Made by a program: the position numbers and the translations under genes. Below, in pieces: positions 7,919 to 24,175 of a stretch of DNA of 64,000 nucleotides (its first letter is position 1; each line of letters begins with the position of its first letter). A model generated the notes under the pieces. It saw only the letters and a program-made list of their open reading frames with translations. It searched no databases and was not told the DNA's origin. The stretch is taken from the sequence record OM386655.1. One strand, given 5' to 3'. The DNA comes from Escherichia phage vB_EcoM_ESCO10.

Positions 7919-7938
7919 CATCAATAAGAGGATACCTT

Positions 7939-8691: not shown

Positions 8692-9857
8692 GTTCAAAAA
8701 CTATGCAGCGTGAAGGCTTTCCTAATATTAGTATACGCCTTTACGAAGATTATGACGCCTGGTTAGAGCATCGTTTTGTTGAACTAGGCGCGACATTTAC
8801 TACCCTAACAATGCGAGACGGGCTTTATGGTAGTAATGAAGGATTGCTCCAGTTTTATGATGCAAAAAACCTTCATACCAAAATGGATGGTGAACAGATT
8901 ATCCAAGTTTCCGTTAAGAACGCCAACTCAGAACGTACCCAATCAAGAATTTATGGAACCAAGCATTTTGCCGTAGGAGTGGATTCTAAGGGCGATAATA
9001 TCATAACAATACAACTCGCCCCTATCCACTTTTTAGAAAATCTTAAATTCGGACGTATGTTTTTCCCTAGTGTTCAAGAAACATTAACTGAAATGATTGG
9101 GGTTATTTACCAGGACCGACCACTTCTTGCCCCACCGCTGAACGGGATAAACGTTTATGTTCCTAATGTCCCGTGGTGCGATTCTATGGATAGATATATG
9201 GAGTTTGTACGAGAAGTCGGTATGGCTGTTGAATCTGATAAATTTGTATTTGTTTGGGAAGATATAGATGGTATTTCTATTATGGACTACGAATTTATGG
9301 TTAATCAAGAGCCGATCAATTTTGTAGTAGGTGAGCCTCGTTTAATAGGGCAGTATGTCCAAGATATGGACACTCCTATTGCATTTGATTTTGAGTGGCT
9401 AACTAAAGCTAACCAACATATCCGAAAACCATACGAAAATGCTACAGTATACGCTCATTCGTTCTTAGATAAAAACGCTACACGAATTACTTTTGGAGAC
9501 GGGCAAAACAGTATACTAGTTTCTCGTTCCGGCGGATATTCTGATTATACATATCGAAACGGATTTGAAGAAGCCGATAGATTAGTTACTATGGCCCAGT
9601 ATGATGGGTATGCTCATTGCAAGGTATACGGGAACTTTGAATTAACCCCAGGTGATAAGATTAATTTCTATGACCCTAAAAACCAATTCCAGTACGATTT
9701 TTATGTAGACGAAGTTATTCATGAAGTGAGTAACAATACATCAATTACAAACCTTTATATGTTTACCAATGGTAAGCCTATTAAGATTGAAGAACCACCG
9801 AAGGTTAAAAATGAACTTAAAACTGATACTCCCGATCAAGAAAATAACGCTGGGTGA
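8688..9857 (+). CDS. 27: baseplate hub subunit gp27
   Basis: synteny and size 389 aa; ATGA overlap with gene 51. Confidence 0.8.
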
Positions 9858-10332
9858 TAAAGAGATTTCTATTCCTAAATTAGGTCTTAAACACCAGAAA
9901 TTAGTTAAAGATGAAAAGGACCCTTATAAAGCTCTTCATATATTAATGGATTCCATTTATAAGGGTTTAACTGCAGCAGAAACTGATTTTGCCGCACTCC
10001 ATCTTTTAGAATTCAACGGACGTCTAAAAGAAAAAGTAACCAAAGATGGATTTACATATAATCTAAATGACCTTTATATCTGCCAACGTCTTGAATTCCA
10101 ATTCCAAGGTAAAACGTTTAAATTTAAATCACACGAACCATTCCAAACATTTGGTCCTGTTGATAGTGTACTACAATCTCTTTATCTTGGTGATGATGTA
10201 CCAGATTTTCTGGATATGCCTGCCTTTGTTGCGACATGGGCCGACGATATAACTTCTACTGTAGCTATCCCTGGTCCTAATGGTCCTATTAAAGGATTGC
10301 TTAAAATCATGGATATCTTAAATGAAGAATGA
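9811..10332 (+). CDS. 28: baseplate hub distal subunit gp28
   Basis: synteny; internal ATG ([11 protein letters not shown]) chosen, overlaps gene 27 end. Confidence 0.6.
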
Positions 10333-12058
10333 ATCTAATCAGAATAGTTTTCGTCGTAATAAACTGATTGAACAAATGGCTCCTCAGCGTCGTGCTGAGG
10401 CGCTAGCCCAAACTCAGAACGACGAATTAGGAAATATAACAGAAGCTTTATCAGAAACCCAGGCATCGTCTGAATTGCTCTCTGAAGTTGTTGAAACAAA
10501 GTCTAATCAGATTATTAGTTCTGTAGACCGAGTAGATAAAAGTGTCCAAGATGTTGTCGCTGGAACAGAATTAACAGCTGAAGCTATATCAGAACAGACC
10601 CAACAATCTAAAGCTCTTTCAGACGCATTAAACGAAAAGATTAATAAGCTTTCTAATATGTTGGAGGCTAAATTTTCTGGTATTTCTATACCACCAGAAG
10701 GGAGCTCGCTAAAGGTTATTGAGGACTCTATTCCAGAAGAACCTAAGGCTGAAACTCCTAAAGTCCCGGCAGTTATTGAAGATATTCTCCCGCCGGAAGA
10801 TAATAAACCTGATGCTGAATTTGTACCAGAGCCTCCTAAAAATTCGGATGAAGGTGAAGAAGGTGGTAAGAGTTCTCTTTCTGATAAAATTGAAGCCCTT
10901 ACAAAAATAACCGAAAAAGGATTTAAAGCTTCTGTAAGCGTAGCCGATAGAATTTCAGGTATGCTTTTTAAGTATACCATTACTGCTGCCGCTGAAGCAG
11001 CTAAACTGGCCGCTGGTCTGGTTCTTTTAATATTTGGTATAGATGCCATTAGAGTTTACTTCCAATATTTTATGAAGCAATTTGAAGCCGGTTGGAAAGA
11101 ATTTAACGAAAAGTTTAAAGAGTGGGGACCTGTACTTGAAGGATTAATGACTTGGGCCAAGAATGCTGAAGCCATGTTTAGTGAAGGAAATTGGCTAGGC
11201 CTAGCTGAAGCTATTATTCGTGGTATGGTTAATCTTACTAAAAATATGGCACAACTTTTAATGCTTGGTATTTCTAAGTTGATTTCATCTATTTTAAGTA
11301 AAATACCTGGTATGGGTGATTTAGCTGAAAATGTAGAGGCGTCCGCTTTAATGTCGTATCAACAAAATACAGGAGCCACTTTAGATGACGAAGACCAAAC
11401 TAAAGTAGCCAAGTACCATGATAGACGTTCAGCAGAGGCTTTAGAAACAGCCGAGAAAATGAATAAGAAGTATAAAGATAAACCTGAGCTTATAAACCAG
11501 GCAGAGAAATACGGTAATCTTACCAAAGAACAAGCTGACCAGTTACGTGCAGGTGGAATTGACACAAGCTTCCGCGACCTCCCTGAAGAAGAACGTTTGG
11601 ACTATTTCAAGAAACGTGATAAAGCCCAGGCTGATATTATTCGTTTAACCCAAACCGCTGATAATATAATGAAGCCTGATTCTAAAGATATCGAAAACGC
11701 TAAGGCATTTAAAGCGGATATCGAGAAACAATTAGCCGACCCTATTATGGCTAAAGGTGGAGCACCCAAAGACCTTAATATTCAGCAATTACTTGATAAG
11801 ATGGATAAATCTTTAGAGAAATTTAATGATGCTGAAAAGCCTAAACCAGCTTCTGTAGCTGAAGCCCCTGAAACAGCTCAAGCTAAAAAGGTTGACGAGC
11901 AAATGAGAGCAAAGGAAAATGCTAAATATAGTCAGCAAGCTCCAACTCAAATAAATCAGCAAACGAATATCAAGAAAACGAGTAAGACTAGTTATAATTT
12001 ACCACCACAGTCTTCTACTCCTGCCCCTGGTATGCGTCAAGCTACTAAAGTTAATTAG
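10322..12058 (+). CDS. 29: baseplate hub subunit / tail length determinator gp29
   Basis: 578 aa, low-complexity central region, synteny. Confidence 0.8.
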   Translation: MKNESNQNSFRRNKLIEQMAPQRRAEALAQTQNDELGNITEALSETQASSELLSEVVETKSNQIISSVDRVDKSVQDVVAGTELTAEAISEQTQQSKALSDALNEKINKLSNMLEAKFSGISIPPEGSSLKVIEDSIPEEPKAETPKVPAVIEDILPPEDNKPDAEFVPEPPKNSDEGEEGGKSSLSDKIEALTKITEKGFKASVSVADRISGMLFKYTITAAAEAAKLAAGLVLLIFGIDAIRVYFQYFMKQFEAGWKEFNEKFKEWGPVLEGLMTWAKNAEAMFSEGNWLGLAEAIIRGMVNLTKNMAQLLMLGISKLISSILSKIPGMGDLAENVEASALMSYQQNTGATLDDEDQTKVAKYHDRRSAEALETAEKMNKKYKDKPELINQAEKYGNLTKEQADQLRAGGIDTSFRDLPEEERLDYFKKRDKAQADIIRLTQTADNIMKPDSKDIENAKAFKADIEKQLADPIMAKGGAPKDLNIQQLLDKMDKSLEKFNDAEKPKPASVAEAPETAQAKKVDEQMRAKENAKYSQQAPTQINQQTNIKKTSKTSYNLPPQSSTPAPGMRQATKVN

Positions 12059-12066
12059 GATTGATA

Positions 12067-13155
12067 ATGAAAGTAAAAGAACTCGACTTTGATGTAGCCT
12101 CCTTATTTAAAGGAGGTTCAAAAACCTCCGCAGGTCAATCTAAAGCTAAACCGGCCCAAACTACGGTAACAGCCCAGTATCCAGCAGAGAGGGCTTCCGG
12201 TAATGATACTTCTACAGATATGGTACTAAACGATTTATATAAAAATGGTTTACTTTTTACAGCATATAATTTTAGCTCTCGTGTATCGCCCGATTTGCGT
12301 AATGACCGTTCGAGCCAAATGACTAAAAAGTTTTCAAAAGCCGCTAATAAACTTACCGGTAATACTGGTGGGTTCAGTGCAGTTAAAAACCTGTTTAGTA
12401 GCAACTCTAAAGGAGTAAAATTTGATAGCCAGGCTTTAGCCAACATTTTACTCCCACGTTCCAAGTCTGATGTTGATTCAGTCACCCATAAATTTAATGA
12501 TGTAGGCGAATCATTAATTACTAAAGGCGGTGGTACTGCTACAGGTATTTTGAGTAACGTTGCTAGTACTGCGGTATTTGGTGCATTGGAATCTGTAACT
12601 AATGGGGTAATGGCTGATTCAGGAGAACAGATATATACCACCGCTCGTAGTATGTACGCAGGACCTGATAACCGTACTAAAGTATTTACTTGGGAAATGA
12701 CCCCTAGAAATGCTCAGGACCTTATCCAGATTATCAAAATATACGAAATCTTTAATTATTATTCTTATGGCGAAACAGGCAACTCTGCCTTCGCGGGTGA
12801 ATTAAAAGAGAAGATTGACACATGGTACAGGTCTACATTTAAAAAAGAAGCTATTGATAACTTTGATGGTAAGCTATTAGGAGAAGGTATTACAAGTTTC
12901 CTTTCCAATGTTATTGTAGTAAGTAACCCGACCATTTGGTATATTCGAAACTTTGGCGATACAAGTTCATATGACGGGCGCGAAGATATTTTTGGACCGT
13001 GTCAAATCCAGAGTATACGATTTGACAAAACTCCTGATGGGCATTTTAATGGTTTGGCTATTGCTCCTAACTTACCATCTACATTTAGTTTAGAAGTTAC
13101 TTTCCGTGAAATCATTACTTTGAACCGTGGCTCACTTTATACGGAAGGATTCTAA
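12067..13155 (+). CDS. 48: baseplate tail tube cap gp48
   Basis: synteny, size; ATG 12067 (track TTG 12061). Confidence 0.8.
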   Translation: MKVKELDFDVASLFKGGSKTSAGQSKAKPAQTTVTAQYPAERASGNDTSTDMVLNDLYKNGLLFTAYNFSSRVSPDLRNDRSSQMTKKFSKAANKLTGNTGGFSAVKNLFSSNSKGVKFDSQALANILLPRSKSDVDSVTHKFNDVGESLITKGGGTATGILSNVASTAVFGALESVTNGVMADSGEQIYTTARSMYAGPDNRTKVFTWEMTPRNAQDLIQIIKIYEIFNYYSYGETGNSAFAGELKEKIDTWYRSTFKKEAIDNFDGKLLGEGITSFLSNVIVVSNPTIWYIRNFGDTSSYDGREDIFGPCQIQSIRFDKTPDGHFNGLAIAPNLPSTFSLEVTFREIITLNRGSLYTEGF

Positions 13156-14108
13156 TGTATACTTTACAAGAATTTCAGAATCAGGCAATTAATATTGACC
13201 TACAAAGGAATAACCTGTTTAGCGTAGTATTTGCTACAGTTCCTTCTTCTAAATCCCAAGCGCTCCTCGACCAGTTCGGTGGAGCTTTATTTAACAACAT
13301 CCCTTTAAATACAGATTTGCTGGGTATTACACAAGGAGAGTTGACTCAAGGTGTTACGACATTAGTGACAGCGGGCACTCAGAAGTTGATTCGTAAGTCA
13401 GGCATAAGTAAATATCTGATTGGTGCTATGTCATCCAGGGTTGTGCAGAGTTTACTAGGTGAGTTTGAAGTCGGGACTTATCTTATGGATTTTTTCAATA
13501 TGGCTTATCCCACTGCGGGACTTTTAGTCCATGCAGTTAAAATCCCGGATAACACGTTGAATTATGAAATGGACCTTAACCATAACTCTCCTAATATAAA
13601 AATCACTGGAAGAGAATATTCCCCATTAGTATTAAGCTTCCGTATGGATTCTGAAGCTGCTAACTACCGTGCTTTTAATGATTGGGTCAATAGTGTCCAA
13701 GACCCTATTACGCAGCTAAGAGCATTACCTGAAGATGTTGAAGCTGACATCCAAGTCAACCTTCATTCTCGTAACGGATTGCCACATACGGTAGTAATGC
13801 TTAACGGTTGCGTTCCCGTTAGTGTTTCATCACCGGAATTATCCTACGACGGTGATAACCAAATTGCTTCGTTTGATGTTACATTTGCTTATAGAAGTAT
13901 ACAGACAGGTGCAGTTGGTAAACAAGCTGCTTACGAATGGTTGGAAGATAAAGTCCTTAAAGGTGTAGCGGGTCTAAGTGAGAGTAACTCATTAAGTTCT
14001 TCTGTAGCTAAATTGAGTAGACTTTCAGGAGCAGCAAGTGGATTGACTGGATTGGTTAATACGTTTGGTGGACGTGCTATTAATAATGGAATATCAAGGT
14101 TGTTATAA
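13155..14108 (+). CDS. 54: baseplate tail tube initiator gp54
   Basis: synteny, size 317 aa; TAATG coupling. Confidence 0.8.
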   Translation: MYTLQEFQNQAINIDLQRNNLFSVVFATVPSSKSQALLDQFGGALFNNIPLNTDLLGITQGELTQGVTTLVTAGTQKLIRKSGISKYLIGAMSSRVVQSLLGEFEVGTYLMDFFNMAYPTAGLLVHAVKIPDNTLNYEMDLNHNSPNIKITGREYSPLVLSFRMDSEAANYRAFNDWVNSVQDPITQLRALPEDVEADIQVNLHSRNGLPHTVVMLNGCVPVSVSSPELSYDGDNQIASFDVTFAYRSIQTGAVGKQAAYEWLEDKVLKGVAGLSESNSLSSSVAKLSRLSGAASGLTGLVNTFGGRAINNGISRLL

Positions 14109-14110
14109 TA

Positions 14111-14136
14111 AAAAAGGAGAGCCTTGGCTCTCCTTT
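14111..14136. terminator. bidirectional intrinsic terminator after gene 54
   Basis: GGAGAGC-CTTG-GCTCTCC hairpin, A5 upstream, TTT downstream. Confidence 0.6.
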
Positions 14137-14141
14137 AGGGG

Positions 14142-14432
14142 TTACTTACGGAACGAGATAAAACCTGCTGCAGTCATTAAGGGTTGCTTTTTAACAAATA
14201 CAGTAACTGAAATAGGAGCTTCAGATTCAAGCTGACCTGTCACTACACCATTAAAGATGTTTTCGGTTTGCTCAGGTTGTGAAAAATTTTCAACCGGGCG
14301 TAAGTCGAACTGCTTGTCTTCACCGAAAACGCGACGTAATTCATTACCTACTGCACTGTCGAACTCTTCAGAAGCTGGGATAACGTTTTCAACTACCAGT
14401 TCTTGACCATTAAAACGGAATGTAGATTTCAT
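14142..14432 (-). CDS. hypothetical protein (96 aa)
   Basis: ORF track; GAGGAG SD; own early promoter. Confidence 0.5.
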   Translation of the reverse strand: MKSTFRFNGQELVVENVIPASEEFDSAVGNELRRVFGEDKQFDLRPVENFSQPEQTENIFNGVVTGQLESEAPISVTVFVKKQPLMTAAGFISFRK

Positions 14433-14460
14433 ATTGTTCTCCTCATGTTTGTGTAAGGTA

Positions 14461-14490
14461 ATAGTACCACATCCTTGTGGTGTTGTAAAC
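14461..14490 (-). promoter_or_regulatory. sigma70-like early promoter
   Basis: minus GTTTAC, 18 nt, TACTAT; overlaps stop of Alt-like gene. Confidence 0.45.
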
Positions 14491-16613
14491 TACATTTTGA
14501 ATTTAGTTGGTAAAGCGGAGATGTTCAAAGATGCTGCAAGGATTTCCATAGCTTCGTTGCTTTCAGAAATAGATTCACTAATCAAGAATTGGCTGAATCC
14601 ATCCATCAGGCGAACTTCGCCGGTTTCCATCAAATGGTCACCATCGTAAACAGATTCGCTGAGCTCTGAAGGAGGTGTTACGGTAGCTTCCATAAGGTAT
14701 TTGTGAGACACTCTATCATTCATGGCAAAAGCCGCTACTTTATCAACCTTCAACAATAATCCGCGCGGAAGGATAATTTCTGCTTCTTCGGCATATTCTG
14801 TAAGGTCGCCGGGAGCGATAACTTTAACTGCTTCAGCACCTCGAATAACCATACCAATTTCAGCAATTCTATCCGCAGGGCCTTCAGGTGCAATTGGATT
14901 ACCAAACTCGTCTTCTTCCCATTCTACCTCTTCGTCATCGACTTCACCCACATCAGATGAACTACCACTAGCCAATTTAAACAACTCATCAGCGGAGGAT
15001 AAAGAACCTTCACCACCAACAAAAACGGCTTGGTTGTCGAGGGCCATATAATTTTTACCGAATTCACCAAAGATGTTAGGCTTTAATGAGGCTGACACAA
15101 AGTTCTTAAAGTAAAATGTTTTGTTATCGATATTATGGCGCAGAATTTTGTATGGCAAATCCTGACCACGATACAAAATAGTACCCTTAGGAAGTTTAAT
15201 ACCCTTAGTAAATGCTGAGTCTAAATCCTTAATCAATTTAATAGCCGTTGTATTGTTTTCGGATTCAGGTTTACCTAAAAGGAATAAGTTCATAGGAGCA
15301 TATTCAGCTGCGCAATATTCAATAATAGCGTTGCTTTCGTCTTTGGTTAGGTCCTTAGGTTTAATGAGCTCACCTGAATAAGCATATGCATCACTAATAG
15401 AATCGTTAATTAGTTTATAAACGGCTTCCATAGCGAAAGCAATTCGAGAGGCCTTTTCTGAAGGGGAGCCTTTAAAACGAGCGCTCAAGTTATTAACAAT
15501 TTTCTTAATAATATCCAGACTATTGGTGGTATTGATTTGCGAAAGGCCGCTTAAAAGTCTATCGACTTCTGTATTAAAAAATGCCATATTTTTAGAGTAA
15601 ATTTCAAACCCTTGTTTATCTCTATTAGCATAATTTAGTTTAAATTTACTATCAGTCATTAAAGCGTGCGTGAGAGCAATGGTGTATCTAAAGTTGGCAA
15701 GGTCCTCGCTCTTAGATTTAAACTGAGAAGCCTGGCGCATTTTGGTAATAGCACCTTTTTTAAAGTTCTGGCTAATCTGTTCAATACCTTCATTCTCAGG
15801 GCCTTCGGCAGTGTGAACCGGTACAGAAGCTTCAAATTCGTTATATACCTGCAATTCTTTAGGGGACAAAGTTTCAGGCTCAGCAGTAGAATACTGTGCG
15901 GCTGCTGCCATACGACGGGAAATCTTAGTACGGGTAATGACAGCCTTATCAGTACGTTTCTCTTCAACCTTAGCGATACTTGCCGCCATAGCTTCGACCT
16001 TACTTACGGCTTGACCTGTTTTCTTAGAAACATAAACTTCACCAACTTTAGACTCGACCTTAGTATAAAGATCGGCATCAATTTCAGGCATACCTTTGAT
16101 ATCTTCGATATTAGAACCACGACGTACTAAAAGAACGTAGGTATGTTTTCCACTGAATTGGAACATATCATCAACAACTTTAAACTTACCACCAGTACGA
16201 GCCATTACTAAACGAGCCAATACACGTTGTACAGTAGGGCCCTTACCTTTCATTTTCTTAGTAGGGAAACGGAACAGAACTGCGTCCATTTTAAGTTTGT
16301 TTACTTGTTCATATACTGTATCGAAAATAGTATTCAATGCACCAAGTGGGTCAGAACCAAGTCCACCTTTGAGTTCAGCCGGGGCTCCTTTGCTTGACAA
16401 ACTCATTAGAATAACATGAACATATTTGTCACCCGGCTTAACCATTTTAACTGCGTCTCCTTGAGACGCATAAGATACCATACGAGCAACAAGGTTATCA
16501 TTACCTGGAGCTTGAATAGAGAAAATCTGTGGGATACCGGAACCTGGTTTAAGATTTGTTACTGGATAGTTTTTAGCGGAATCACTATCAAAAACTTCGT
16601 TTAAATTTTCCAT
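14490..16613 (-). CDS. Alt-like ADP-ribosyltransferase paralog (divergent copy)
   Basis: N-terminal third similar to the adjacent alt product; R (YRGQ), S-x-S (FVSASL), E-x-E (EEAEIILPRG) motifs; acidic insertion. Confidence 0.8.
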   Translation of the reverse strand: MENLNEVFDSDSAKNYPVTNLKPGSGIPQIFSIQAPGNDNLVARMVSYASQGDAVKMVKPGDKYVHVILMSLSSKGAPAELKGGLGSDPLGALNTIFDTVYEQVNKLKMDAVLFRFPTKKMKGKGPTVQRVLARLVMARTGGKFKVVDDMFQFSGKHTYVLLVRRGSNIEDIKGMPEIDADLYTKVESKVGEVYVSKKTGQAVSKVEAMAASIAKVEEKRTDKAVITRTKISRRMAAAAQYSTAEPETLSPKELQVYNEFEASVPVHTAEGPENEGIEQISQNFKKGAITKMRQASQFKSKSEDLANFRYTIALTHALMTDSKFKLNYANRDKQGFEIYSKNMAFFNTEVDRLLSGLSQINTTNSLDIIKKIVNNLSARFKGSPSEKASRIAFAMEAVYKLINDSISDAYAYSGELIKPKDLTKDESNAIIEYCAAEYAPMNLFLLGKPESENNTTAIKLIKDLDSAFTKGIKLPKGTILYRGQDLPYKILRHNIDNKTFYFKNFVSASLKPNIFGEFGKNYMALDNQAVFVGGEGSLSSADELFKLASGSSSDVGEVDDEEVEWEEDEFGNPIAPEGPADRIAEIGMVIRGAEAVKVIAPGDLTEYAEEAEIILPRGLLLKVDKVAAFAMNDRVSHKYLMEATVTPPSELSESVYDGDHLMETGEVRLMDGFSQFLISESISESNEAMEILAASLNISALPTKFKM

Positions 16614-16616
16614 TAT

Positions 16617-18701
16617 TTACCCTTGGATGAATTTTTCTGGGATGTCGTCAAAATCAATACATGAAGCCAAAAGAGGCAACACATCAAAACGTGTGGATTT
16701 TACAAATGAGTCAAAGGACACAGGACTTTCGGAAGTATCAAAATCATCTTGGTATACAGCCAATTCACCGGTTTCCATTAATACGTCACCATCATACACT
16801 ACAGATTCTTGAAGCTCATCTGTTGTCATAACTTCAGCTTGAATGAGCTTTGTATTACTAGATGTTGTCCCGTCATTATTAGAAGCATCAGTTATTTTAT
16901 TAACTTTGACCATCAATCCGCGCGGTAGAATAACTTCAGCTTCTGTTGCTATACCTAATTGGCCTGGATAAACAACATTAACTTTATGAGCACCGTCAAT
17001 AGCCCATCCTATTTGAACTTTAACGTATTCAGGATTTTCTCTATATGCTCTTATTTCGCTTGGGTTAATAGTTATTCCTTCTTCATTTTTATCAACTGTT
17101 AGTTCATTGCGAGCTTCTGGTTCTAAAAGACCCACGCCAGCGTGAGTAACACCAAAACGACCAAAAATAATAGGAGTCAGTGAAGTAGATACAAAATTTC
17201 TAAAATAGAACACTTTATTTTTAACTAGTGCTTCGTATATAGGAGCAGTCATACTTTGGGCACGATAAACTGTAATGCCTTCTGGTATACGGTCTCCATT
17301 TTCAAAAGCTGAATCCAGATTATTAACGGCAGATTCGATATCTTTTTCGCCCATAACCTCATAGTTCTGAGGATTATAACGTCCTAAAAGAAGGTTATTG
17401 ATATCACCATATCCGGAACCACAATATTCACGAATACCACGTTTTTGAGAAGGGGTATATTTATCTGCACTATGACCCAAAGTAATATCAACCATAATAC
17501 CGCCGCCCACACCAGCAAAACTATACACACGTTTTTTAATGAACTTGGTCTTGGCTGCTTTCCACTTGGACTCAGTCAATTCATTCCAGAGGTCATCAGG
17601 TTGCCCTTTACGGGTTTTGTTGTGCGTGGCCACCCACTCGCCTTTATATTCTTCGAAGACACTGTTAATAACCGAAGCATATTTTTCCAGAGCTTTAACA
17701 GATGTTAAAGGTTCATTTTTGATAGCCGTAAGGATTCTCTCTTTAATTTTCTCTTGGATTTCACCAATAGCATGAAGTGGGAACATTTTATATTCGTAAT
17801 GCAACTCTTCAGCAGTACCTTCAGCCACTATATTAACAACCTTATTTTTAGCCGCTGGAGAATTATTATTCGTAACCATTTCCTGCGCGTCAGGGATTAA
17901 TGGAGCTGTAGCCGGTTTATTAAAATCTGCTGAAGTAGCTTCATACTTCTTAAACAGTTCGCTTTCATTACGATAAGATTCTAACGATTGGCTTGCTGCA
18001 ATCGCTCGCCGCGAAATCTTAGTTTTGGTTATAACCATTTTATCAGTGCGACGTTCTTCAACTTTAGCAATACTGCCGGCAATAGCAGTTTCTTTAGTAA
18101 CCTGCACGCCTTCTTTTTTAGAAATATAAACTTCACCAACATCAGAATCTACCTTAGTATACAGTTCAGCATTAATTCCTGGCATACCTTTGATATCTTC
18201 GATATCAGCTTGTTTACGAACTACTAGGATATACGTGTGTTTACCTGTAAATTGGTACATGGCCGGAACTACTTTGAAGCGTCCGCCTGTTTTTTGAGTT
18301 ACTAAACGTTGGATAATTCTCTGGACAACAGGACCTTGACCTTTCATTTTCTTGGTAGGAAAACGGAACATAACAGCATCCATACGAAGCTTTTTAACTT
18401 GTTCGAATACTACGTCGAAAATGGTATTAATAGCATCAATAGGAGTAGGGCCTAAGCCGCCTTTAAGTTCAGCTGGTGAACCTTTAGCTGAAAGGCTCAT
18501 AAGGATGATGTGGGCGTATTTATCACCTAATTTAACCTGTTTAATAGCATCGCCTTCAGAGGCATAAGATACCATACGAGCAACCAATTGGGATTCGGCA
18601 TTACCGATCTTCCAAATCTGGGGCACTTTAAGTTTTGGGTTTAAGTTTACAGTAGGCAGGGTGCCTTCAGACTCAAACACTTCATTTAATTGTTCGGTCA
18701 T
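16617..18701 (-). CDS. alt: Alt ADP-ribosyltransferase (packaged, modifies host RNA polymerase in T4)
   Basis: close match to T4 Alt incl. C-terminus ...LPRGLMVKVNKITDASNNDGT...IQAEVMTT; R/STS/ExE motifs. Confidence 0.9.
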   Translation of the reverse strand: MTEQLNEVFESEGTLPTVNLNPKLKVPQIWKIGNAESQLVARMVSYASEGDAIKQVKLGDKYAHIILMSLSAKGSPAELKGGLGPTPIDAINTIFDVVFEQVKKLRMDAVMFRFPTKKMKGQGPVVQRIIQRLVTQKTGGRFKVVPAMYQFTGKHTYILVVRKQADIEDIKGMPGINAELYTKVDSDVGEVYISKKEGVQVTKETAIAGSIAKVEERRTDKMVITKTKISRRAIAASQSLESYRNESELFKKYEATSADFNKPATAPLIPDAQEMVTNNNSPAAKNKVVNIVAEGTAEELHYEYKMFPLHAIGEIQEKIKERILTAIKNEPLTSVKALEKYASVINSVFEEYKGEWVATHNKTRKGQPDDLWNELTESKWKAAKTKFIKKRVYSFAGVGGGIMVDITLGHSADKYTPSQKRGIREYCGSGYGDINNLLLGRYNPQNYEVMGEKDIESAVNNLDSAFENGDRIPEGITVYRAQSMTAPIYEALVKNKVFYFRNFVSTSLTPIIFGRFGVTHAGVGLLEPEARNELTVDKNEEGITINPSEIRAYRENPEYVKVQIGWAIDGAHKVNVVYPGQLGIATEAEVILPRGLMVKVNKITDASNNDGTTSSNTKLIQAEVMTTDELQESVVYDGDVLMETGELAVYQDDFDTSESPVSFDSFVKSTRFDVLPLLASCIDFDDIPEKFIQG

Positions 18702-18736
18702 AATAATTCCTCTTTAATAACCGTATTTATGCCATT

Positions 18737-18754
18737 AAAGGCCCGAAGGCCTTT
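18737..18754 (-). promoter_or_regulatory. stable hairpin upstream of alt (UUCG tetraloop on transcript)
   Basis: AAAGGCC-CGAA-GGCCTTT; no U-run so not called terminator. Confidence 0.35.
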
Positions 18755-18755
18755 A

Positions 18756-18938
18756 TTAAAGTACTAATAGCGTACGGTATACTTCAAACTTAGGGCCCTT
18801 TTCATACCGGTCAAAAGTATCTTTGAAATCAGCAAAAGTGATTTCATTATCAAATTCAAGGATAATTTGTGAACATGAAGTAGAAACATCTCCACCTTCT
18901 TTATATCCAATAACCACGGTTTCTAAATAAGCTTTCAT
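18756..18938 (-). CDS. hypothetical protein (60 aa)
   Basis: ORF track from internal ATG; overlaps ligase stop region. Confidence 0.35.
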   Translation of the reverse strand: MKAYLETVVIGYKEGGDVSTSCSQIILEFDNEITFADFKDTFDRYEKGPKFEVYRTLLVL

Positions 18939-18939
18939 A

Positions 18940-20463
18940 TTATAACCCTGTCTGAGACCAATCACCAAATACGTCTTCAAACGTATCAGCTTCTGTTTTA
19001 TCAAATCGCCAACCTTTAATAATTGGGAGGAAAATACCTACAGTATCAGTACGTCCTTTAGAATGAACCCAACCATTGCATTCACAATCAGCAATACGTC
19101 CAATCAACTTACCTTCACGTGCTTGTTTCATAAGAAGTTCACGGTCTAAATCAGGACGATCTTCCAATGGAATCGACACCTTTTTACCTGATTTATCTTT
19201 CTTATGGGTGGTATCTTTAAAGCCAGAACCGCAGTCACTTGTAATTCGACGACAACGTGATACTAACTCGACACCACCAAGTTTGTTAGGGTCTTTAGAG
19301 TGTTCATAATAACCTACTACTTCTAAAGCGATATCGATTACTTCTTTGAACTTGATAAGATTCTTAGAACGGCGGTTTTCCCAGTAGGAGTCCATGTTCT
19401 TAAGGATAATACCTTCCAGACCTTGGTCGACGTATTTTTTATAAACGACTTTAGCTTCAGCCAAATTGTTAACCCATTGGTTTTCAATAGCTTCAACACG
19501 TGTTGTACCATGCAATACGACATTATGAGCAACCATAAGTTCTAAGGCAGTAAAGCGTAAATCATACTTATCGCCTTTAATTTTACCTTCGGAATACACT
19601 ACATCTAACGGAACGTAATCCCACGCCTGTAATACCATGCCAGCAGCTTCAGTAGCAGAAATAGTTCCTTGAAGAGCTTTGTTAGCCAAGCCGTTTGATG
19701 TAGAACGATCGGCGACGGTTTGGAATTCCTTTGCCTTACTTAATTCAGGGACTTCTTCATCAAACATGCTAAACAGGTCATTGGATGTTTTGGGTTCAAC
19801 CTTAGGGGTATGGTAAACTAATTCACCGTCAATCATAACACCATTAGGATGACGTTTACGAGCTTCTTCAGTCATCACCATTAATTCGGCTGCCAAAAGA
19901 TTAAGTCCTTGGTATTCATTACCACCACGGGTAAGGAATGTAACACCCGAATCACGTACTTCAGCAAAGCAACGAGCCCCATCAGCTTTTAATTGAGCAA
20001 ATGCAGGCCATTTAATATTTTTCTTAATCAGAGCTTCATCATAAGAACTAGCCAACATCTGAGGTTGTTCAGGGATTAAACCTTTCCAAACCTTGTTGGC
20101 AATAGAAATAGATGCACCACATTCAAGGTCACGCATCATTACACGACGTAATACCTCAACATCTTGTCCTTTGGCATCGGCAATAATTTGGGCAAGTTCT
20201 TCAATGGCCGCATTACCTGTAATCTTACGGGTGGCTAATGTGAACTCAGCGAAATCAAGAAGGTCTTCAAGTGTAATCATACCAAAGGATTGAGACGTAA
20301 ATCCAGGTTCTGGCCACTTTTTAATACCGTAGTTTAATCGGCGCGTATAAGCCATACGATAAACACGTTTAAGAAGCTCGTTGTCCTTTTCACGAGCAAT
20401 AATAGCTTCTTTAGCTTTGGTAGAATCGATAGCAGCAATTTCGTTCAAGATATCTAAAATCAT
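18940..20463 (-). CDS. 30: ATP-dependent DNA ligase gp30
   Basis: strong match to T4 DNA ligase; start at MILDILNEIAA. Confidence 0.95.
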   Translation of the reverse strand: MILDILNEIAAIDSTKAKEAIIAREKDNELLKRVYRMAYTRRLNYGIKKWPEPGFTSQSFGMITLEDLLDFAEFTLATRKITGNAAIEELAQIIADAKGQDVEVLRRVMMRDLECGASISIANKVWKGLIPEQPQMLASSYDEALIKKNIKWPAFAQLKADGARCFAEVRDSGVTFLTRGGNEYQGLNLLAAELMVMTEEARKRHPNGVMIDGELVYHTPKVEPKTSNDLFSMFDEEVPELSKAKEFQTVADRSTSNGLANKALQGTISATEAAGMVLQAWDYVPLDVVYSEGKIKGDKYDLRFTALELMVAHNVVLHGTTRVEAIENQWVNNLAEAKVVYKKYVDQGLEGIILKNMDSYWENRRSKNLIKFKEVIDIALEVVGYYEHSKDPNKLGGVELVSRCRRITSDCGSGFKDTTHKKDKSGKKVSIPLEDRPDLDRELLMKQAREGKLIGRIADCECNGWVHSKGRTDTVGIFLPIIKGWRFDKTEADTFEDVFGDWSQTGL

Positions 20464-20473
20464 AATCACCTCA

Positions 20474-20752
20474 TTAGTCATGGATTCTATTATAAGCCAC
20501 ATCAGCCAAAAGCAAGTCTAATCTCTTATGATAAGAGAACACAAATCTCATTTGACCGTTGGATTTCATTTTAGACATAAAGTGGACATAGATAAATCCT
20601 TGCTCAACGCATTCACGCCAGACCGGATGGTCTTTAGCAGGGTTTACATCAAAAGAATAATCATGATTCACATGTCGAATAAACTGGTTTACATGACCGT
20701 AATCCATTGTAGTGGTAGGGCCACGGTCTGAAATTGTATGAACTACAAACAT
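20474..20752 (-). CDS. hypothetical protein (30.1-like)
   Basis: ORF track; internal ATG abutting upstream stop. Confidence 0.45.
   Translation of the reverse strand: MFVVHTISDRGPTTTMDYGHVNQFIRHVNHDYSFDVNPAKDHPVWRECVEQGFIYVHFMSKMKSNGQMRFVFSYHKRLDLLLADVAYNRIHD
20489..20516 (-). promoter_or_regulatory. MotA-dependent middle promoter for gene 30
   Basis: minus cTTGCTTtt, 15 nt, TATAAT ~25 nt upstream of ligase ATG. Confidence 0.4.
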
Positions 20753-20753
20753 A

Positions 20754-21392
20754 TTAACCTCGAGCAACCCATTCAACGGCTGTATTATTACGAAGAGATT
20801 CGATAGCTGCTATATCGTCCCACGAATTAACCTTTACTGCTAAATTAGGTTTAAAGTCACGTTCACCACGGGCCAACCAATAAACTTGGATATCCATGAG
20901 AACATTAGATGCAGCATCACAGTGGTGAGCCAAATCATCAACATAAAACTTAATACGCTTACCATAAGTATTTTTAGCTCTTACGAACAGGTCTTCTTTT
21001 GATTCTGAATGGCCACACATCAGAATCTCCTTGAATGCGCCAGGGAACAAAGCATTCAAATTGAATTGTCTATTCAGCAGGGCATCAATTGAGTCGCCTA
21101 GCGCAGTCACGGCTACAAAATCGAAGTCTTTTTTGAGCTTGTTGATATGTTTTAGTGCGTCCATATAAGGAGACAGATAACGAATGAAATCTGACTGATT
21201 GTATTTCTCGATTAAACGAGCGCCTAATTCGTTGTCACAATTAAACAACTCACCTGGAGATAAGAAACGTTCGTCCTGAATCATATTCAAAATATGTTCT
21301 AAAGGCAGATTATATTTCTGTGCAAAATAAGGCAAGCCAGACTGCCAACTTAAACATACTCCATCGATATCTGTTAAGATAACTGGTTTCAT
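20754..21392 (-). CDS. HAD-superfamily-like hydrolase (30.2-like)
   Basis: N-terminal DIDGV motif-I-like sequence. Confidence 0.5.
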   Translation of the reverse strand: MKPVILTDIDGVCLSWQSGLPYFAQKYNLPLEHILNMIQDERFLSPGELFNCDNELGARLIEKYNQSDFIRYLSPYMDALKHINKLKKDFDFVAVTALGDSIDALLNRQFNLNALFPGAFKEILMCGHSESKEDLFVRAKNTYGKRIKFYVDDLAHHCDAASNVLMDIQVYWLARGERDFKPNLAVKVNSWDDIAAIESLRNNTAVEWVARG

Positions 21393-21856
21393 AATAAATC
21401 TCTCAATTTGTTTAGGATGTCGATAAACTCTTTTTCAGTTAGTATTGTATCACATTCTGTAAGGTGGCTTGCCATCGAATGCTTTAAAACTTTGCCTTTT
21501 GTAGCTTGTAATGCGTCGCGGAATCCTTTGTTTTGGAGCGCCGCTTCAAAATACGCATTTTCATACAACTCTTTCCATGCTGCAGAGTATCTTGAAAACG
21601 GAACTCCAAGCCAGAACAACGTGCCACGGTCCGCAGCTCTTGCATAAGCTCTTCCAGTTTGTTGGGCTGCAAGCCCGGACATCCTAAATATACGTCTTTG
21701 TTGTTCAACATTTTTCACCTTACACCCTTGGAGGAATCCTTCGAGTCCACCAAATTGGATACCGTCCATAACAAAAGGCCACTTAGCAAAGTTACTTAAT
21801 GCACATGATGGCCATGGGAAATTACTTCTAATTTCTAACTCAGACATCTTTAACAC
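21389..21856 (-). CDS. NADAR (YbiA/DUF1768)-like protein, putative ADP-ribose processing enzyme (30.3-like)
   Basis: F-SNF...PF..DG..F...EG.LQ..K......Q..I......A...GR pattern resembling NADAR signature. Confidence 0.5.
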   Translation of the reverse strand: MLKMSELEIRSNFPWPSCALSNFAKWPFVMDGIQFGGLEGFLQGCKVKNVEQQRRIFRMSGLAAQQTGRAYARAADRGTLFWLGVPFSRYSAAWKELYENAYFEAALQNKGFRDALQATKGKVLKHSMASHLTECDTILTEKEFIDILNKLRDLL

Positions 21857-22052
21857 TTATAATATCGATATCACACCAATGGCCATAACCCGGTAGACGG
21901 TCTTCAACAGATAAACCGCTGACATATTTGAGCATCGTTGTTTTCATTATAACAGGTTCAATATCTTGACCGCCTGGGCGAACGTCTGTTACGCGATAAG
22001 TCACTTCGACCATTTCAGTACCTAACAATTTCTGAATCAGTTTCTTAAACAT
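21840..22052 (-). CDS. hypothetical protein (70 aa)
   Basis: ORF track; overlapping start/stop packing. Confidence 0.45.
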   Translation of the reverse strand: MFKKLIQKLLGTEMVEVTYRVTDVRPGGQDIEPVIMKTTMLKYVSGLSVEDRLPGYGHWCDIDIISVKDV

Positions 22053-22053
22053 A

Positions 22054-22248
22054 TTATCCTCGCTTTAAACATTTGATTACAGACAATTCTTGTCCCATGC
22101 GTACGTCTTCAGTTCCGTCAACCCACAGGACTGAATAGGCTTCTTTAATTACTTTACCGTTAATTTTAAAAGCAGGTAAAACCTTTGAAATCATTCCAGG
22201 AATACCTATGCCTTTTAACTGGACTGTTTGTGATAAAAATAGTTGCAT
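22054..22248 (-). CDS. hypothetical protein (64 aa)
   Basis: ORF track; tight packing. Confidence 0.4.
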   Translation of the reverse strand: MQLFLSQTVQLKGIGIPGMISKVLPAFKINGKVIKEAYSVLWVDGTEDVRMGQELSVIKCLKRG

Positions 22249-22535
22249 TAGAACCTCATCTGAAATCCGTGTGATTTAACATTACCACCATAGACATCAG
22301 AGGTATTGACTTCACGTGCAGCGCTAGGGTCAATGTTAATATCATGGTTGAGCTTAGTGATTGCTAGGGTATCACGACCATTGACGGTACGGAATTCTAC
22401 AGGGCATACCACATCAGCATAGGCCTTAATAGATTCACGAGTAGGCTGTTTGTCAGCAGGAACACCTTTACCGGCTTTAGAGAAAACAACTTCACAGAAA
22501 TTTTTACGAGTATCGAAATAAGTGGTCATAAACAT
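22248..22535 (-). CDS. hypothetical protein (95 aa)
   Basis: ORF track; GAGGA SD. Confidence 0.45.
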   Translation of the reverse strand: MFMTTYFDTRKNFCEVVFSKAGKGVPADKQPTRESIKAYADVVCPVEFRTVNGRDTLAITKLNHDINIDPSAAREVNTSDVYGGNVKSHGFQMRF

Positions 22536-22549
22536 AATATTTTCCTCAA

Positions 22550-22565
22550 GGAGGCCGAAGCCTCC
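22550..22565 (-). promoter_or_regulatory. intercistronic RNA hairpin GGAGGC-UUCG-GCCUCC just upstream of SD
   Basis: perfect 6-bp stem with UUCG loop on minus transcript; identical copy at 60477-60492. Confidence 0.5.
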
Positions 22566-22573
22566 ATTTAAGA

Positions 22574-22939
22574 TTAGATATCAAACTCGTTAAGAACTAC
22601 ATCAAAGATTGCTTCAAGATGTTCAGGTTTAGCTCGGTTACTCAGAATATGACGAATCCAAGTTTTAACTAAGAGTTTACGATTATCACCGTTCCAACAA
22701 GGATGAGTGCCTAAATCGCGTTCACGGAAATCATCATCTAGAGCGATTTTAAAGTTGGAACCTTCCTTAGTTATTGAAAGAGTGATACCGTTTTCAAATC
22801 GCATATAAACGTAGTTAGGAGTCATGCACTGCTCGATTTCACATACTGAACCGTTTTCATGTTTCCACAGGCAAATAACTTCAGAAGAACCAGCGATACC
22901 GTTAGAAACATATTTACGTTCGAAGTTGATGTAGTTCAT
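22574..22939 (-). CDS. hypothetical protein (121 aa)
   Basis: ORF track. Confidence 0.45.
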   Translation of the reverse strand: MNYINFERKYVSNGIAGSSEVICLWKHENGSVCEIEQCMTPNYVYMRFENGITLSITKEGSNFKIALDDDFRERDLGTHPCWNGDNRKLLVKTWIRHILSNRAKPEHLEAIFDVVLNEFDI

Positions 22940-22970
22940 TTTATTATCCTTTGGTTTGATTTCGTATTAT

Positions 22971-23005
22971 TTGGTACAGGTCTATAATAACACAACCTGT
23001 ACCAA
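22971..23005. repeat. perfect 10-bp inverted repeat flanking the -10 element
   Basis: TTGGTACAGG ... 15 nt ... CCTGTACCAA. Confidence 0.7.
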
Positions 23006-23012
23006 AGTAAAA
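22984..23012 (-). promoter_or_regulatory. sigma70-like early promoter
   Basis: minus GTTTTAC, 17 nt, TATTAT. Confidence 0.4.
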
Positions 23013-23015
23013 CAT

Positions 23016-23348
23016 TTATTTCACAACATTCCAATTTTTCATATCAAGTTTACCAACTTTTTTCATCTGAGCAATCAGACGTTCGGCACGCTCACGAGCA
23101 GTAACATAATAGAATTCACCGATTTTGTTTTCTTCAATACGACCTGTAATTACAGTTTTCAGTTCATAAATCCAACCTGTAAAGAAGTTGTGAAGCTCGA
23201 TAGTAAAGGTGAAATCAGTACCCATACCTTCAGTGGTTTCAACTTCAATAATATCACCTTCAACCGCTGTCAGGACCCACATGGTTTCTTGATATTCACC
23301 GTTGAAACATTTAGCTTTAACAGATGCATTCAGGTTTACAGTTTTCAT
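23016..23348 (-). CDS. hypothetical protein (110 aa)
   Basis: ORF track; GGAGAATAAAATG SD. Confidence 0.5.
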   Translation of the reverse strand: MKTVNLNASVKAKCFNGEYQETMWVLTAVEGDIIEVETTEGMGTDFTFTIELHNFFTGWIYELKTVITGRIEENKIGEFYYVTARERAERLIAQMKKVGKLDMKNWNVVK

Positions 23349-23389
23349 TTTATTCTCCAGTTTGTTTTCGTATTTGTTGGTACAAGTCT

Positions 23390-23418
23390 ATAGTATCATG
23401 CCTACTGGAGAAGTAAAC
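23390..23418 (-). promoter_or_regulatory. sigma70-like early promoter
   Basis: minus GTTTAC, 17 nt, TACTAT; flanked by 8-bp inverted repeat 23354-23361/23404-23411. Confidence 0.5.
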
Positions 23419-23436
23419 ACTTTTTTAAAGATACAG

Positions 23437-23464
23437 AAACAAAAATGGGACTCCGAAGAGTCCC
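23437..23464 (-). terminator. intrinsic terminator
   Basis: GGGACUC-UUCG-GAGUCCC hairpin followed by UUUUUGUUU on minus strand. Confidence 0.6.
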
Positions 23465-23469
23465 ATAAC

Positions 23470-23631
23470 TTATGCCCGAGGCTTACCAAAACGAGAAGCA
23501 TCGTCGCGGATAACAGCACGAGCCCGACGCATAATCTTCTCAACTGTCTGATTGATACGTGAGTTAGACGCACGCTTGTAACCAGCGCGTTTAGAGGTTC
23601 CGTCAACTACTTTAACTTCTTTCTTAGCCAT
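23470..23631 (-). CDS. small basic protein (53 aa)
   Basis: hand-translated MAKKEVKVVDGTSKRAGYKRASNSRINQTVEKIMRRARAVIRDDASRFGKPRA; below track cutoff. Confidence 0.45.
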   Translation of the reverse strand: MAKKEVKVVDGTSKRAGYKRASNSRINQTVEKIMRRARAVIRDDASRFGKPRA

Positions 23632-23926
23632 TATAAAATCTCTTTAAATGAAAATGCAGGACTTATTGGCATTGCCTGCGCAAGCCCTCGAAGGGAACAT
23701 AGGTTTTGGATATTTAACGACAGGATAACCATAAACCTCGTCATCATACCAACCACGACTTAGACAGATAACCTTTTTCTGACGCGTGATAGTACAAAAT
23801 ACATTCAAGAGGTACACCGTAAAACTGTCGGGGTCTTAAAACTATAATGATTCGCAAATCATTAATAAGACAGTTCGACGGCTCCTCGATTTTCTAGCCG
23901 CACTAAGGTAGCGAATCACCTAAAAC

Positions 23927-24175
23927 TTATTTAAGGGTAATAACAAAATGACGTACTGCTTTACGAGCTGCCGAAGCCAAAGGCTTAGCATATTTCAGTT
24001 CATCTTTTGCTTCCAGTTCAGAAGCCAAAGCTGCCTGGACCGGGTTCAGATGTTTGAAATAACGCAGGATTTCCAGTGCTTCGGCTTCAACATCAATAGA
24101 TGCGCCATAGTTTTCGTGACCGTTGTTCCAAGCGTTGCGTTGCAGTTCAAGAGCGTGATTCAGATGTTTGTTCAT
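23927..24175 (-). CDS. rIII: rIII-like lysis-inhibition accessory protein (by synteny and size)
   Basis: 82-aa ORF immediately downstream of gene 31 as in T4. Confidence 0.5.
   Translation of the reverse strand: MNKHLNHALELQRNAWNNGHENYGASIDVEAEALEILRYFKHLNPVQAALASELEAKDELKYAKPLASAARKAVRHFVITLK

Follow-up and report, generated by a model that had tools for sequence, protein, structure and literature searches.

Escherichia phage vB_EcoM_ESCO10 is a Dhakavirus, a T4-like coliphage of the JS10/JS98 type, and it carries two adjacent genes of the kind that encodes Alt in phage T4. The question raised by this locus is whether both genes encode functional ADP-ribosyltransferases and, if so, what a second enzyme might provide. 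To address it, the pair was analyzed within the window (the whole stretch of 64,000 nt taken from sequence record OM386655.1). A tandem alt pair is already known, since altA and altB are annotated in relatives and the arrangement is common in T-even phages. A first-pass annotation had read the two genes as intact and their products as probably active, packaged and directed at different host targets; as a whole, that interpretation is partly supported here. The locus contains the following features:

18737-18754, minus strand: terminator-like stem-loop AAAGGCC-TTCG-GGCCTTT on the alt.1 side, directly 3' of the alt.1 stop and upstream of altA
18724-18731, minus strand: box CATAAATA, resembling a late promoter and differing at one position from the T4 late consensus TATAAATA
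16617-18701, minus strand: altA, 694 aa, Alt-family ADP-ribosyltransferase, with a GAGG Shine-Dalgarno 8 nt upstream
14490-16613, minus strand: altB, 707 aa, second Alt-family ADP-ribosyltransferase, starting 3 nt past the altA stop
14142-14432, minus strand: alt.-3 homolog, 96 aa, final gene of the unit, 57% identical to T4 Alt.-3
14113-14136, minus strand: intrinsic-terminator-like hairpin and T-run, 3' of alt.-3, where that gene and gene 54 converge

Both genes are intact, with a 3-nt gap between them (TAA-ATA-ATG), and they lie on the minus strand between gene 54/alt.-3 and alt.1/gene 30 (DNA ligase), in synteny with T4, T2, JS10 and MX01 and in a neighbourhood of baseplate and head-protein genes; the placement of alt.-3 likewise agrees with T4, T2 and JS10. 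The upstream hairpin is identical in ESCO10, JS10, MX01, T4 and T2, and a conserved terminator upstream of alt has been described (Nolan 2006). The box CATAAATA is the sole late-promoter-like site upstream of altA-altB. It aligns with the TATAAATA located 5' of alt in T4 and T2 and is kept in three Dhakaviruses, including JS10 and MX01; one-mismatch matches to TATAAATA are no commoner in the 64-kb window than expected by chance, and no exact TATAAATA occurs between 7918 and 24319. The T at -13 is poorly conserved among T4-like late promoters (PMC1524935). The junction between altA and altB holds no promoter of its own and the altB Shine-Dalgarno is weak. With so short a gap, altB probably shares the altA transcript and is translationally coupled to it. 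The hairpin that follows alt.-3 has a 10-bp stem with 5 GC pairs and is succeeded by TTTATTAT.

Within the genus, the closest comparison is JS10, whose alta (ACL78420.1) and altb (ACL78419.1) share with ESCO10 their order, lengths (694 and 707 aa), 3-nt junction and neighbours (gene 54, alt.-3, alt.1 and gene 30). The proteins are 95% (AltA) and 96% (AltB) identical in amino acids and the locus is about 90% identical in nucleotides. Only allelic differences (dS about 0.4-0.5) separate ESCO10 from JS10 and from IME08, another Dhakavirus in which alta/altb are annotated. The Dhakaviruses MX01, QL01, WG01 and AnYang possess a third, mosaic copy between altA and altB.

Membership of both products in the Alt family, as the first-pass annotation had proposed, is confirmed by their reading frames and by matches to two profiles. 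The PHROG profile phrog_802 ('Alt-like RNA polymerase ADP-ribosyltransferase') covers residues 1-693 of 694 in AltA (E 5e-261) and 1-707 of 707 in AltB (E 1e-251), while Pfam PF03496 scores 119.5 bits on AltA and 63.9 bits on AltB (gathering cut-off 23.4). On the ADP-ribosyltransferase (ART) domain of AltB the latter match is split in two pieces because of a 60-aa insert. Among 131 homologs at E <= 1e-5, the top 120 all have PF03496 plus PF26846. Alignment of the proteins with T4 Alt, together with AF2 models (pLDDT 83 for AltA, with low confidence near the C-terminal cleavage site, and 79.6 for AltB), gives the following parts:

18681-18701, minus strand: AltA predicted N-terminal propeptide, residues 1-7, MTEQLNE|V, its L-x-E aligned with T4 Alt ITE-6
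17982-18680, minus strand: AltA N-terminal alpha/beta domain, residues 8-240, lineage-specific, with a GNAT-like predicted fold
17487-17981, minus strand: AltA all-helical middle domain, residues 241-405, from AF2 secondary structure
16806-17486, minus strand: AltA ART catalytic domain, residues 406-632
16620-16805, minus strand: AltA predicted C-terminal propeptide, residues 633-694, past LQE|SV, aligned with T4 Alt LTE-619
16596-16613, minus strand: AltB predicted N-terminal propeptide, residues 1-6, MENLNE|V, aligned with T4 ITE-6
15894-16595, minus strand: AltB N-terminal alpha/beta domain, residues 7-240
15354-15893, minus strand: AltB helical middle domain, residues 241-420
14655-15353, minus strand: AltB ART catalytic domain, residues 421-653
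14868-15053, minus strand: AltB variable insert, residues 521-582, between S-x-S and E-x-E
14493-14654, minus strand: AltB predicted C-terminal propeptide, residues 654-707, past LSE|SV, aligned with T4 LTE-619

The R, S-x-S and E-x-E residues had been reported as kept in both proteins, and careful alignment shows no loss of any of them. In AltA they are R480 (17262-17264), S505-T-S507 (17181-17189) and E587-A-E589 (16935-16943), and in AltB R482 (15168-15170), S507-A-S509 (15087-15095) and E610-A-E612 (14778-14786). Across an alignment of 73 family sequences the first catalytic Ser and the two Glu never vary, and conservation is at least 90% for the Arg and the second Ser. In AltB, Ala replaces the family's usual middle Thr (S-T-S), and the NAD-pocket motif YFKNFVS is kept. 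Structural superposition onto solved R-S-E ARTs of the C3/iota/VIP2 type reveals the shared fold. Within the T4 Alt family, altA and altB probably encode two functional paralogs, mono-ADP-ribosyltransferases of the arginine-specific R-S-E, E-x-E type. The R-S-E toxins C3, iota, VIP2 and Vis (PF03496) are only 13-25% identical in sequence to Alt proteins, which have in addition an N-terminal alpha/beta domain, a helical middle domain, a cleavable C-terminal propeptide and an insert of 50-95 aa between S-T-S and E-x-E; Alt proteins are delivered by ejection from the phage head, whereas these toxins use a toxin B-component. T4 ModA and ModB are also phage ARTs of the R-S-E clade, which modifies host proteins of transcription and translation, but they are early gene products and not packaged head proteins.

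T4 Alt, which ADP-ribosylates Arg265 of E. coli RNAP alpha as well as other host proteins, travels in the phage head and is injected. The prohead protease gp21 cleaves it at ITE-6 and LTE-619 (PMC5694885). Motifs of the gp21 type occur at the aligned positions of both ESCO10 proteins, LNE|V at the N-terminal site and LQE|SV (AltA) or LSE|SV (AltB) at the C-terminal one. The Glu of each site is invariant in 73 family members; in AltB numbering these are E6 and E653, and L4 is at least 90% conserved. The predicted C-terminal propeptide of AltA also holds the conserved motif YDGDxLMETGE. Mass spectrometry of virions from T4-like Klebsiella phages has detected an Alt-family ART (PMC13119998), and the literature searched held no expression, virion-proteome or enzymatic report for ESCO10 or any AltB-type protein. 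Because the gp21 cleavage motifs are kept in both proteins, it is a reasonable inference that AltA and AltB are active and packaged. The N-terminal third had been described as a capsid-targeting and processing region common to both. It is indeed shared (66% identity over 240 aa), but the known processing of T4 Alt removes only 6 residues there, together with a 63-residue C-terminal propeptide, and no demonstration that the 240-aa domain is a capsid-targeting signal was found in the literature searched.

Beyond that domain the two proteins diverge. BLASTP aligns them with 38% identity overall (E 9e-145), and identity falls from 66% in the N-terminal 240 aa to 16% in the middle, with 38% in the ART domain and 39% in the C-tail. 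The divergence formerly placed in the C-terminal region thus holds for the catalytic part, but it begins in the middle domain, and the extreme C-terminus is conserved. The statement that AltA matches T4 Alt (NP_049811.1) closely did not survive: the two are only 49% identical (N-domain 47%, middle 34%, ART 62%), and the AltA ART core is 91% identical to that of T2 Alt1. AltB is less similar to T4 Alt than AltA is. T4 Alt shares with the ESCO10 proteins its architecture, genomic position, upstream hairpin, R-S-E motifs and pair of gp21 sites, and its late promoter stands where ESCO10 has the late-promoter-like box.

Comparison with T2 points to two cassette types. T2 encodes a tandem pair with a 3-nt junction, BBF63360.1 (697 aa) and BBF63359.1 (685 aa, 'hypothetical protein'). 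The first, Alt1, is of type A, with an ART core 91% identical to that of AltA in amino acids (87% in nucleotides) and a middle domain 61% identical; the AltA core is 87-96% identical to T2 Alt1 in nucleotides, as against 50-60% in the flanks. The second, Alt2, is of type B and an ortholog of AltB (ART 57%, middle 48%, C-tail 65% identical). T4 Alt represents a third type, whose middle and ART domains are 30-65% identical to T2 Alt1 inside flanks 96-100% identical in nucleotides. T4 has no B-type gene, and its alt.-1/alt.-2 ORFs are the remnant of a deletion of about 1.69 kb. N-terminal domains group by phage lineage (41-47% identity across genera versus 66-67% between paralogs of one genome). 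The Alt genes look modular, with a middle and catalytic cassette exchanged between phages and framed by a lineage-specific N-terminal domain and a C-terminal propeptide. Matches spanning 80% or more of the AltB middle and ART region occur in about 460 phage records, 43 of them at 90% identity or above, with the others among the matches listed (including RB9 and RB27) at about 50%.

The acidic insertion reported for AltB is real and lies between S-x-S and E-x-E. Residues 553-585 (14859-14957) include 14 acidic and 1 basic residue (net charge -13), and pLDDT is below 50 across residues 555-577 of the AF2 model. T2 Alt2 shares the first half of the insert but not the acidic half, which is specific to Dhakaviruses. 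Strong purifying selection acts on both genes, this insertion included. Against JS10 and MX01, omega is 0.06 for altA and 0.05-0.08 for altB, the latter at dS 0.3-0.4; it is 0.01-0.05 for the AltB ART segments 421-520 and 591-653, and about 0.02 against JS10, at dS 0.33, for the insert with its acidic part. Conserved, disordered and strongly acidic, this loop of AltB adjoins the active site and is a candidate for an element that recruits substrates.

The explanation that best accommodates these observations, to which we assign a probability of about 0.7 from sequence comparison, is that AltA and AltB are late-expressed, packaged, gp21-trimmed and injected proteins bearing effector cassettes of types A and B. 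Accordingly arranged, the hairpin, the CATAAATA box, altA, altB, alt.-3 and the terminator would form one late transcription unit; gp21 would trim both products at the conserved N- and C-terminal L-x-E sites; the mature proteins (about residues 8-632 of AltA and 7-653 of AltB) would enter with the DNA and would ADP-ribosylate host proteins ahead of any phage gene expression. Each protein would then consist of four parts, a 'phage-side' N-terminal domain and C-terminal propeptide flanking a 'host-side' middle and ART cassette, with A and B as two old, distinct cassette types of which B was lost from T4. The analysis shows directly that the genes are intact members of the family, with its catalytic and cleavage motifs, purifying selection, synteny and mosaic cassettes; from these features we infer that the proteins are expressed late, packaged, processed and enzymatically active, and that their targets differ. 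That the two enzymes differ in host targets or substrate spectra is plausible, and two old and distinct cassette types would make different spectra the most likely outcome.

Divergence alone is no proof of different targets, since T4 Alt and ModA differ greatly as ARTs and still have Arg265 of RNAP alpha as a common target (PMC2988021). AltA and AltB, as E-x-E arginine-type ARTs of the same architecture, could similarly share this main target, the second copy raising or buffering the injected activity, and one copy suffices for T4. Such redundant dosage is unlikely, however, when the effector parts retain so little identity (16% and 38%), the insert adjoining the active site is wholly different and the two types have been held separate in at least two genera, whereas simple duplicates would be expected to stay alike or vanish. 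Decay of one copy towards a pseudogene, for which the T4 remnant of the same gene type offers a precedent, is effectively refuted by the intact altB frame, its low omega and the many phage records that cover the B-type cassette.

Two further alternatives concern AltB only. It might have lost catalytic activity and serve as a structural or internal head protein in which just the ART fold is retained, as the Ala within S-T-S and the weaker, divided Pfam match could suggest, with the disordered acidic loop serving in DNA condensation or another charge-related role in the head. This is improbable, as every catalytic residue and YFKNFVS are kept, the Ser, Glu and Arg positions are invariant or nearly so across the family, the ART segments are tightly constrained and the division of the match is due to the insert. 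Alternatively, AltB could be made but left unpackaged, acting in the producing cell in the manner of ModA and ModB, since altB lacks its own promoter and could also be reached by read-through transcription. Its full Alt architecture, with the N-domain and both gp21 motifs with their invariant Glu, its position behind a late-type promoter box among baseplate and head-protein genes, and the early expression of ModA/ModB as opposed to the packaging and injection of Alt make this improbable too.

The preferred explanation, that of two injected effectors with distinct cassettes, can be extended to a broader one in which Alt is a modular delivery platform, the AltB acidic loop a nucleic-acid mimic and the N-terminal domain the seat of a second, GNAT-like activity; taken jointly, these propositions are unlikely. 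If they held, the N-domain and C-terminal propeptide would serve as head-docking frame, packaging signal and homology arms, between which T-even phages would swap or stack middle and ART cassettes with different host targets. The acidic loop would draw in host or defence proteins that are rich in arginine and bind DNA or RNA, and the GNAT-like domain would be acyl-CoA-dependent, making Alt proteins bifunctional injected effectors. On this broader account the B-type cassette was never studied because it is absent from T4.

A separate observation is that the Alt N-terminal domain has a GNAT-like fold in the predicted models. The N-domains have no Pfam or NCBIfam match even at E <= 10. Next to the central strand, on its C-terminal side, comes a motif-A-like K120-x-x-G123-x-G/A/E125, in which K120 and G123 do not vary while position 125 is a Glu in 19 of 73 sequences; the domain is not assigned here to the GNAT superfamily, there being no profile match and the motif departing from acetyl-CoA motif A (Q/R-x-x-G-x-G/A). 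Clustered at 50% identity, the family of the AltB N-domain counts just 69 representatives in a set of 1.84 billion proteins. It invariably occupies the N-terminus of the protein, and PF03496 is also present in 7 of the 10 atypical members scanned.

Two tandem Alt-type reading frames, reported in the first-pass annotation, are present on the minus strand of the window, separated by a junction of 3 bases (TAA-ATA-ATG). The gene order is that of Dhakavirus JS10, with gene 54/alt.-3 followed by the Alt pair and then by alt.1/gene 30 (DNA ligase). No tRNA genes were found in the window. The coding features are as follows.

16617-18701, minus strand: altA, open reading frame of 694 aa
14490-16613, minus strand: altB, open reading frame of 707 aa
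16620-16805 (AltA) and 14493-14654 (AltB), minus strand: predicted C-terminal propeptides, the segment that the prohead protease gp21 removes in T4 Alt
AltB residues 553-585, minus strand: acidic half of the AltB insert, SDVGEVDDEEVEWEEDEFGNPIAPEGPADRIAE, 14 acidic residues and 1 basic, specific to Dhakavirus AltB
14142-14432, minus strand: alt.-3 homolog, 96 aa, 57% identical to T4 Alt.-3

Each product has a full-length match to PHROG 802 ('Alt-like RNA polymerase ADP-ribosyltransferase'; E-value 5e-261 for AltA, 1e-251 for AltB) and a match to Pfam PF03496 well over the gathering score; PF26846 is the precomputed annotation for the Alt family, and an NCBIfam search with AltA, AltB, alt.-3 and alt.1 gave zero matches. 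Compared with JS10 and MX01, omega is 0.06 for altA and 0.05-0.08 for altB, and by this measure neither gene is decaying; the possibility that altB is a pseudogene was rejected on these values. [quoted passage not shown] The locus is ~90% identical at the nucleotide level in Dhakavirus genomes (JS10, IME08, NC-G, MX01), the JS10 and IME08 records list the same two genes as alta/altb, T2 carries a tandem pair of the same kind (697 and 685 aa), MX01, QL01, WG01 and AnYang have three Alt copies compared with two in the window, and paralogous duplications adjoining alt were described in RB49, 44RR and T4 by Nolan et al. 2006 (PMC1524935).

AltA and AltB align with an E-value of 9e-145, and their identity is unevenly distributed. 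The common N-terminal third noticed earlier is borne out by 66% identity across the first 240 residues (the N-domain), while identity is 16% in the helical middle domain, 38% in the ADP-ribosyltransferase (ART) domain and 39% in the C-terminal tail. The catalytic residues are found at aligned positions in both products, namely R480, S505-T-S507 and E587-A-E589 in AltA and R482, S507-A-S509 and E610-A-E612 in AltB, which deviates only in having Ala where the middle residue is usually Thr. In family alignments of 73 sequences, no variation is seen at the first Ser or at either Glu, and conservation is at least 90% at the Arg and the second Ser; in HMMER alignments the Arg and E-x-E fall on the catalytic positions of iota toxin Ia and BECa. 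Sequence searches of the PDB returned no solved Alt structure and weak matches only (iota, BECa, Certhrax, C3, Vis). Likewise, Foldseek searches of the PDB matched the ART domain only (AlphaFold2 models: AltA, pLDDT 83.0, pTM 0.73; AltB, pLDDT 79.6, pTM 0.72).

Between S-T-S and E-x-E, every Alt protein carries a variable stretch of considerable length, and in AltB it is ~32 residues longer than in AltA, which agrees with the long acidic insertion described in the first-pass annotation. The first half of this insert is common to T2 Alt2, the second (B-type) Alt of T2. Residues 555-577 are predicted to be disordered (AlphaFold2, pLDDT <50), whereas the equivalent AltA segment is folded with confidence in the model. 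For the insert as a whole (residues 521-590), omega is ~0.02 at a dS of 0.33.

While the reading frames, catalytic motifs and acidic insertion of the first-pass annotation stand, its close match of AltA to T4 Alt does not, as identity is only 49% overall (N-domain 47%, middle 34%, ART 62%). The ART domain of AltA is instead near that of T2 Alt1, the first (A-type) Alt of T2, with 91% amino acid and 87% nucleotide identity and a dS of 0.51, a value equal to within-genus dS, with saturated flanks (dS >1.5). In sliding windows the high-identity block spans residues 451-620 (window 16842-17351; 87-96% nucleotide identity), outside of which the two genes are 50-70% identical. This core with divergent flanks is evidence, at the sequence level, of cassette exchange between genera, the cassette being the middle and ART domains. 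In the comparison of T4 Alt with T2 Alt1 the pattern is reversed: the flanks are 96-100% identical in nucleotides at residues 1-235 and 89-98% from ~residue 600, around a core of only 40-70%.

T2 Alt2 is the ortholog of AltB (ART 57%, middle 48%, C-tail 65% identity), and a match to the B-type cassette at a coverage of at least 80% was found in about 460 phage records. When T4 alt.-1/alt.-2 (5034-5454 of the T4 locus, L002) was compared with T2 alt2 (6098-8218 of the T2 locus, L003), the first 351 nt were 94.9% and the last 80 nt 92.5% identical. Since both ends of T2 alt2 are matched, T4 alt.-1/alt.-2 is a deletion remnant of a B-type gene from which ~1.69 kb is gone, with a frameshift, in agreement with a note in the T4 record.

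Further mosaicism is seen in the third copy of MX01 (4120-6165 of its locus, L004), whose N-domain is 91% identical to that of AltB and whose C-tail is 69% identical to that of AltA, around a unique cassette (middle 23%, ART 32-39%); this suggests cassette insertion via the conserved ends. Clustering of 73 Alt homologs per domain at 70% identity divided the N-domain into 11 clusters, the middle into 41 and the ART domain into 31, and middle and ART distances are correlated (r = 0.89). N-domains are 66-67% identical between paralogs of one genome versus 41-47% between orthologs across genera. Taken together, the mosaic identities, cluster counts and N-domain likeness of paralogs indicate that a conserved, lineage-specific frame surrounds an exchangeable effector cassette. 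Recent gene conversion between the AltA and AltB N-domains was also considered and rejected, as dS is saturated at 1.5.

In T4, Alt belongs to the head core, is present in about 40 copies and is injected together with the DNA (PMC9958956, PMC9026906). It is cut by gp21 at ITE-6 and LTE-619, which takes off 6 residues at the N-terminus and 63 at the C-terminus (PMC5694885). L-x-E is kept at both aligned sites (LNE|V in both products, then LQE|SV in AltA and LSE|SV in AltB), both cleavage-site Glu are invariant in the Alt family, and a conserved motif, YDGDxLMETGE, immediately follows the C-terminal site, within the propeptide. The cleavage and propeptide motifs support, without proving, packaging and processing of AltA and AltB. 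The propeptide start, (S)V-YDGD-x-LMETGE, is retained in each of the ten Alt sequences that were compared, across cassette types, and such unusually strong conservation of a discarded propeptide suggests a targeting or autoinhibitory role.

Two candidate expression signals lie upstream of altA.

18737-18754, minus strand: hairpin AAAGGCCTTCGGGCCTTT with a UUCG tetraloop, between alt.1 and alt
18724-18731, minus strand: late-promoter-like box CATAAATA, the same in three Dhakaviruses

The window, JS10, MX01, T4 and T2 share one and the same hairpin sequence, which is thus 100% conserved between Dhakaviruses and T4/T2 despite divergent surrounding intergenic sequence. Downstream of the hairpin, T4 and T2 have the late promoter TATAAATA, whose place is taken here by CATAAATA; the first T of the late-promoter box is poorly conserved among T4-like phages (PMC1524935). 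The exact TATAAATA has no site in 7918-24319 of the window, and one-mismatch matches occur at chance frequency, so the promoter call stands on positional homology only. A scan for sigma-70 promoters and terminators showed no enrichment over shuffles, its sole convincing terminator being after alt.-3. Since no further late-type box was found between the CATAAATA site and altB, and given this terminator, altA-altB-alt.-3 likely form a transcription unit, in which the alt.-3 homolog is probably co-transcribed with both alt genes. T4 mutants with a C-terminally extended Alt.-3 evade CmdTAC defence by blocking the degradation of CmdA (PMC11618068).

The best-supported reading is that altA and altB would be expressed late and their products packaged in the prohead, processed by gp21 and injected as arginine-specific mono-ARTs with distinct effector cassettes. 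Each of the alternatives is rated lower. A pseudogene or dead enzyme fits poorly with the purifying omega values and the retained catalytic motifs, and an unpackaged enzyme with the retained cleavage motifs. Redundancy of the two enzymes would recall T4 Alt and ModA, which, though very dissimilar, both modify Arg265 of RpoA (PMC2988021); the motif and selection data also count against it. Because identity is 16% in the middle and 38% in the ART domain, and both types have been maintained long-term, the substrate spectra of AltA and AltB likely differ. A literature search turned up neither functional nor proteomic work on a second Alt paralog.

Knowledge of Alt comes essentially all from T4, the only studied model, in which the catalytic cassette is unlike that of most T2-like/JS98-like phages and the B-type gene is deleted. 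Hence, the injected ART repertoire of many T-even phages, therapeutic Dhakaviruses included, lies outside what T4 has taught. Where two or three distinct enzymes arrive ready-made and act within the first seconds of an infection, their transcription, translation or defence targets could differ.

With 69 representatives at 50% identity in a set of 1.84 billion proteins, the N-domain family is a small one. Its members always carry the domain at the N-terminus, usually with PF03496 after it. A motif-A-like K120-x-x-G123-x-G/A, with K120 and G123 invariant, follows the central strand of the domain. A GNAT assignment was not adopted, as Pfam and NCBIfam gave no profile match (Pfam on three N-domains, E <= 10) and a quarter of the sequences have Glu at position 125. 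Among ten atypical N-domain proteins searched with Pfam, seven have an ART domain (one below the curated cut-off), three have no match at all, and none has a recognised non-ART domain. A few metagenomic N-domain proteins, P0170 (1142 aa), P0174, P0172 and P0176, match neither ART nor any other Pfam domain; such Pfam-negative proteins may be either fragments or fusions of the N-domain to unrecognised C-terminal effector parts.
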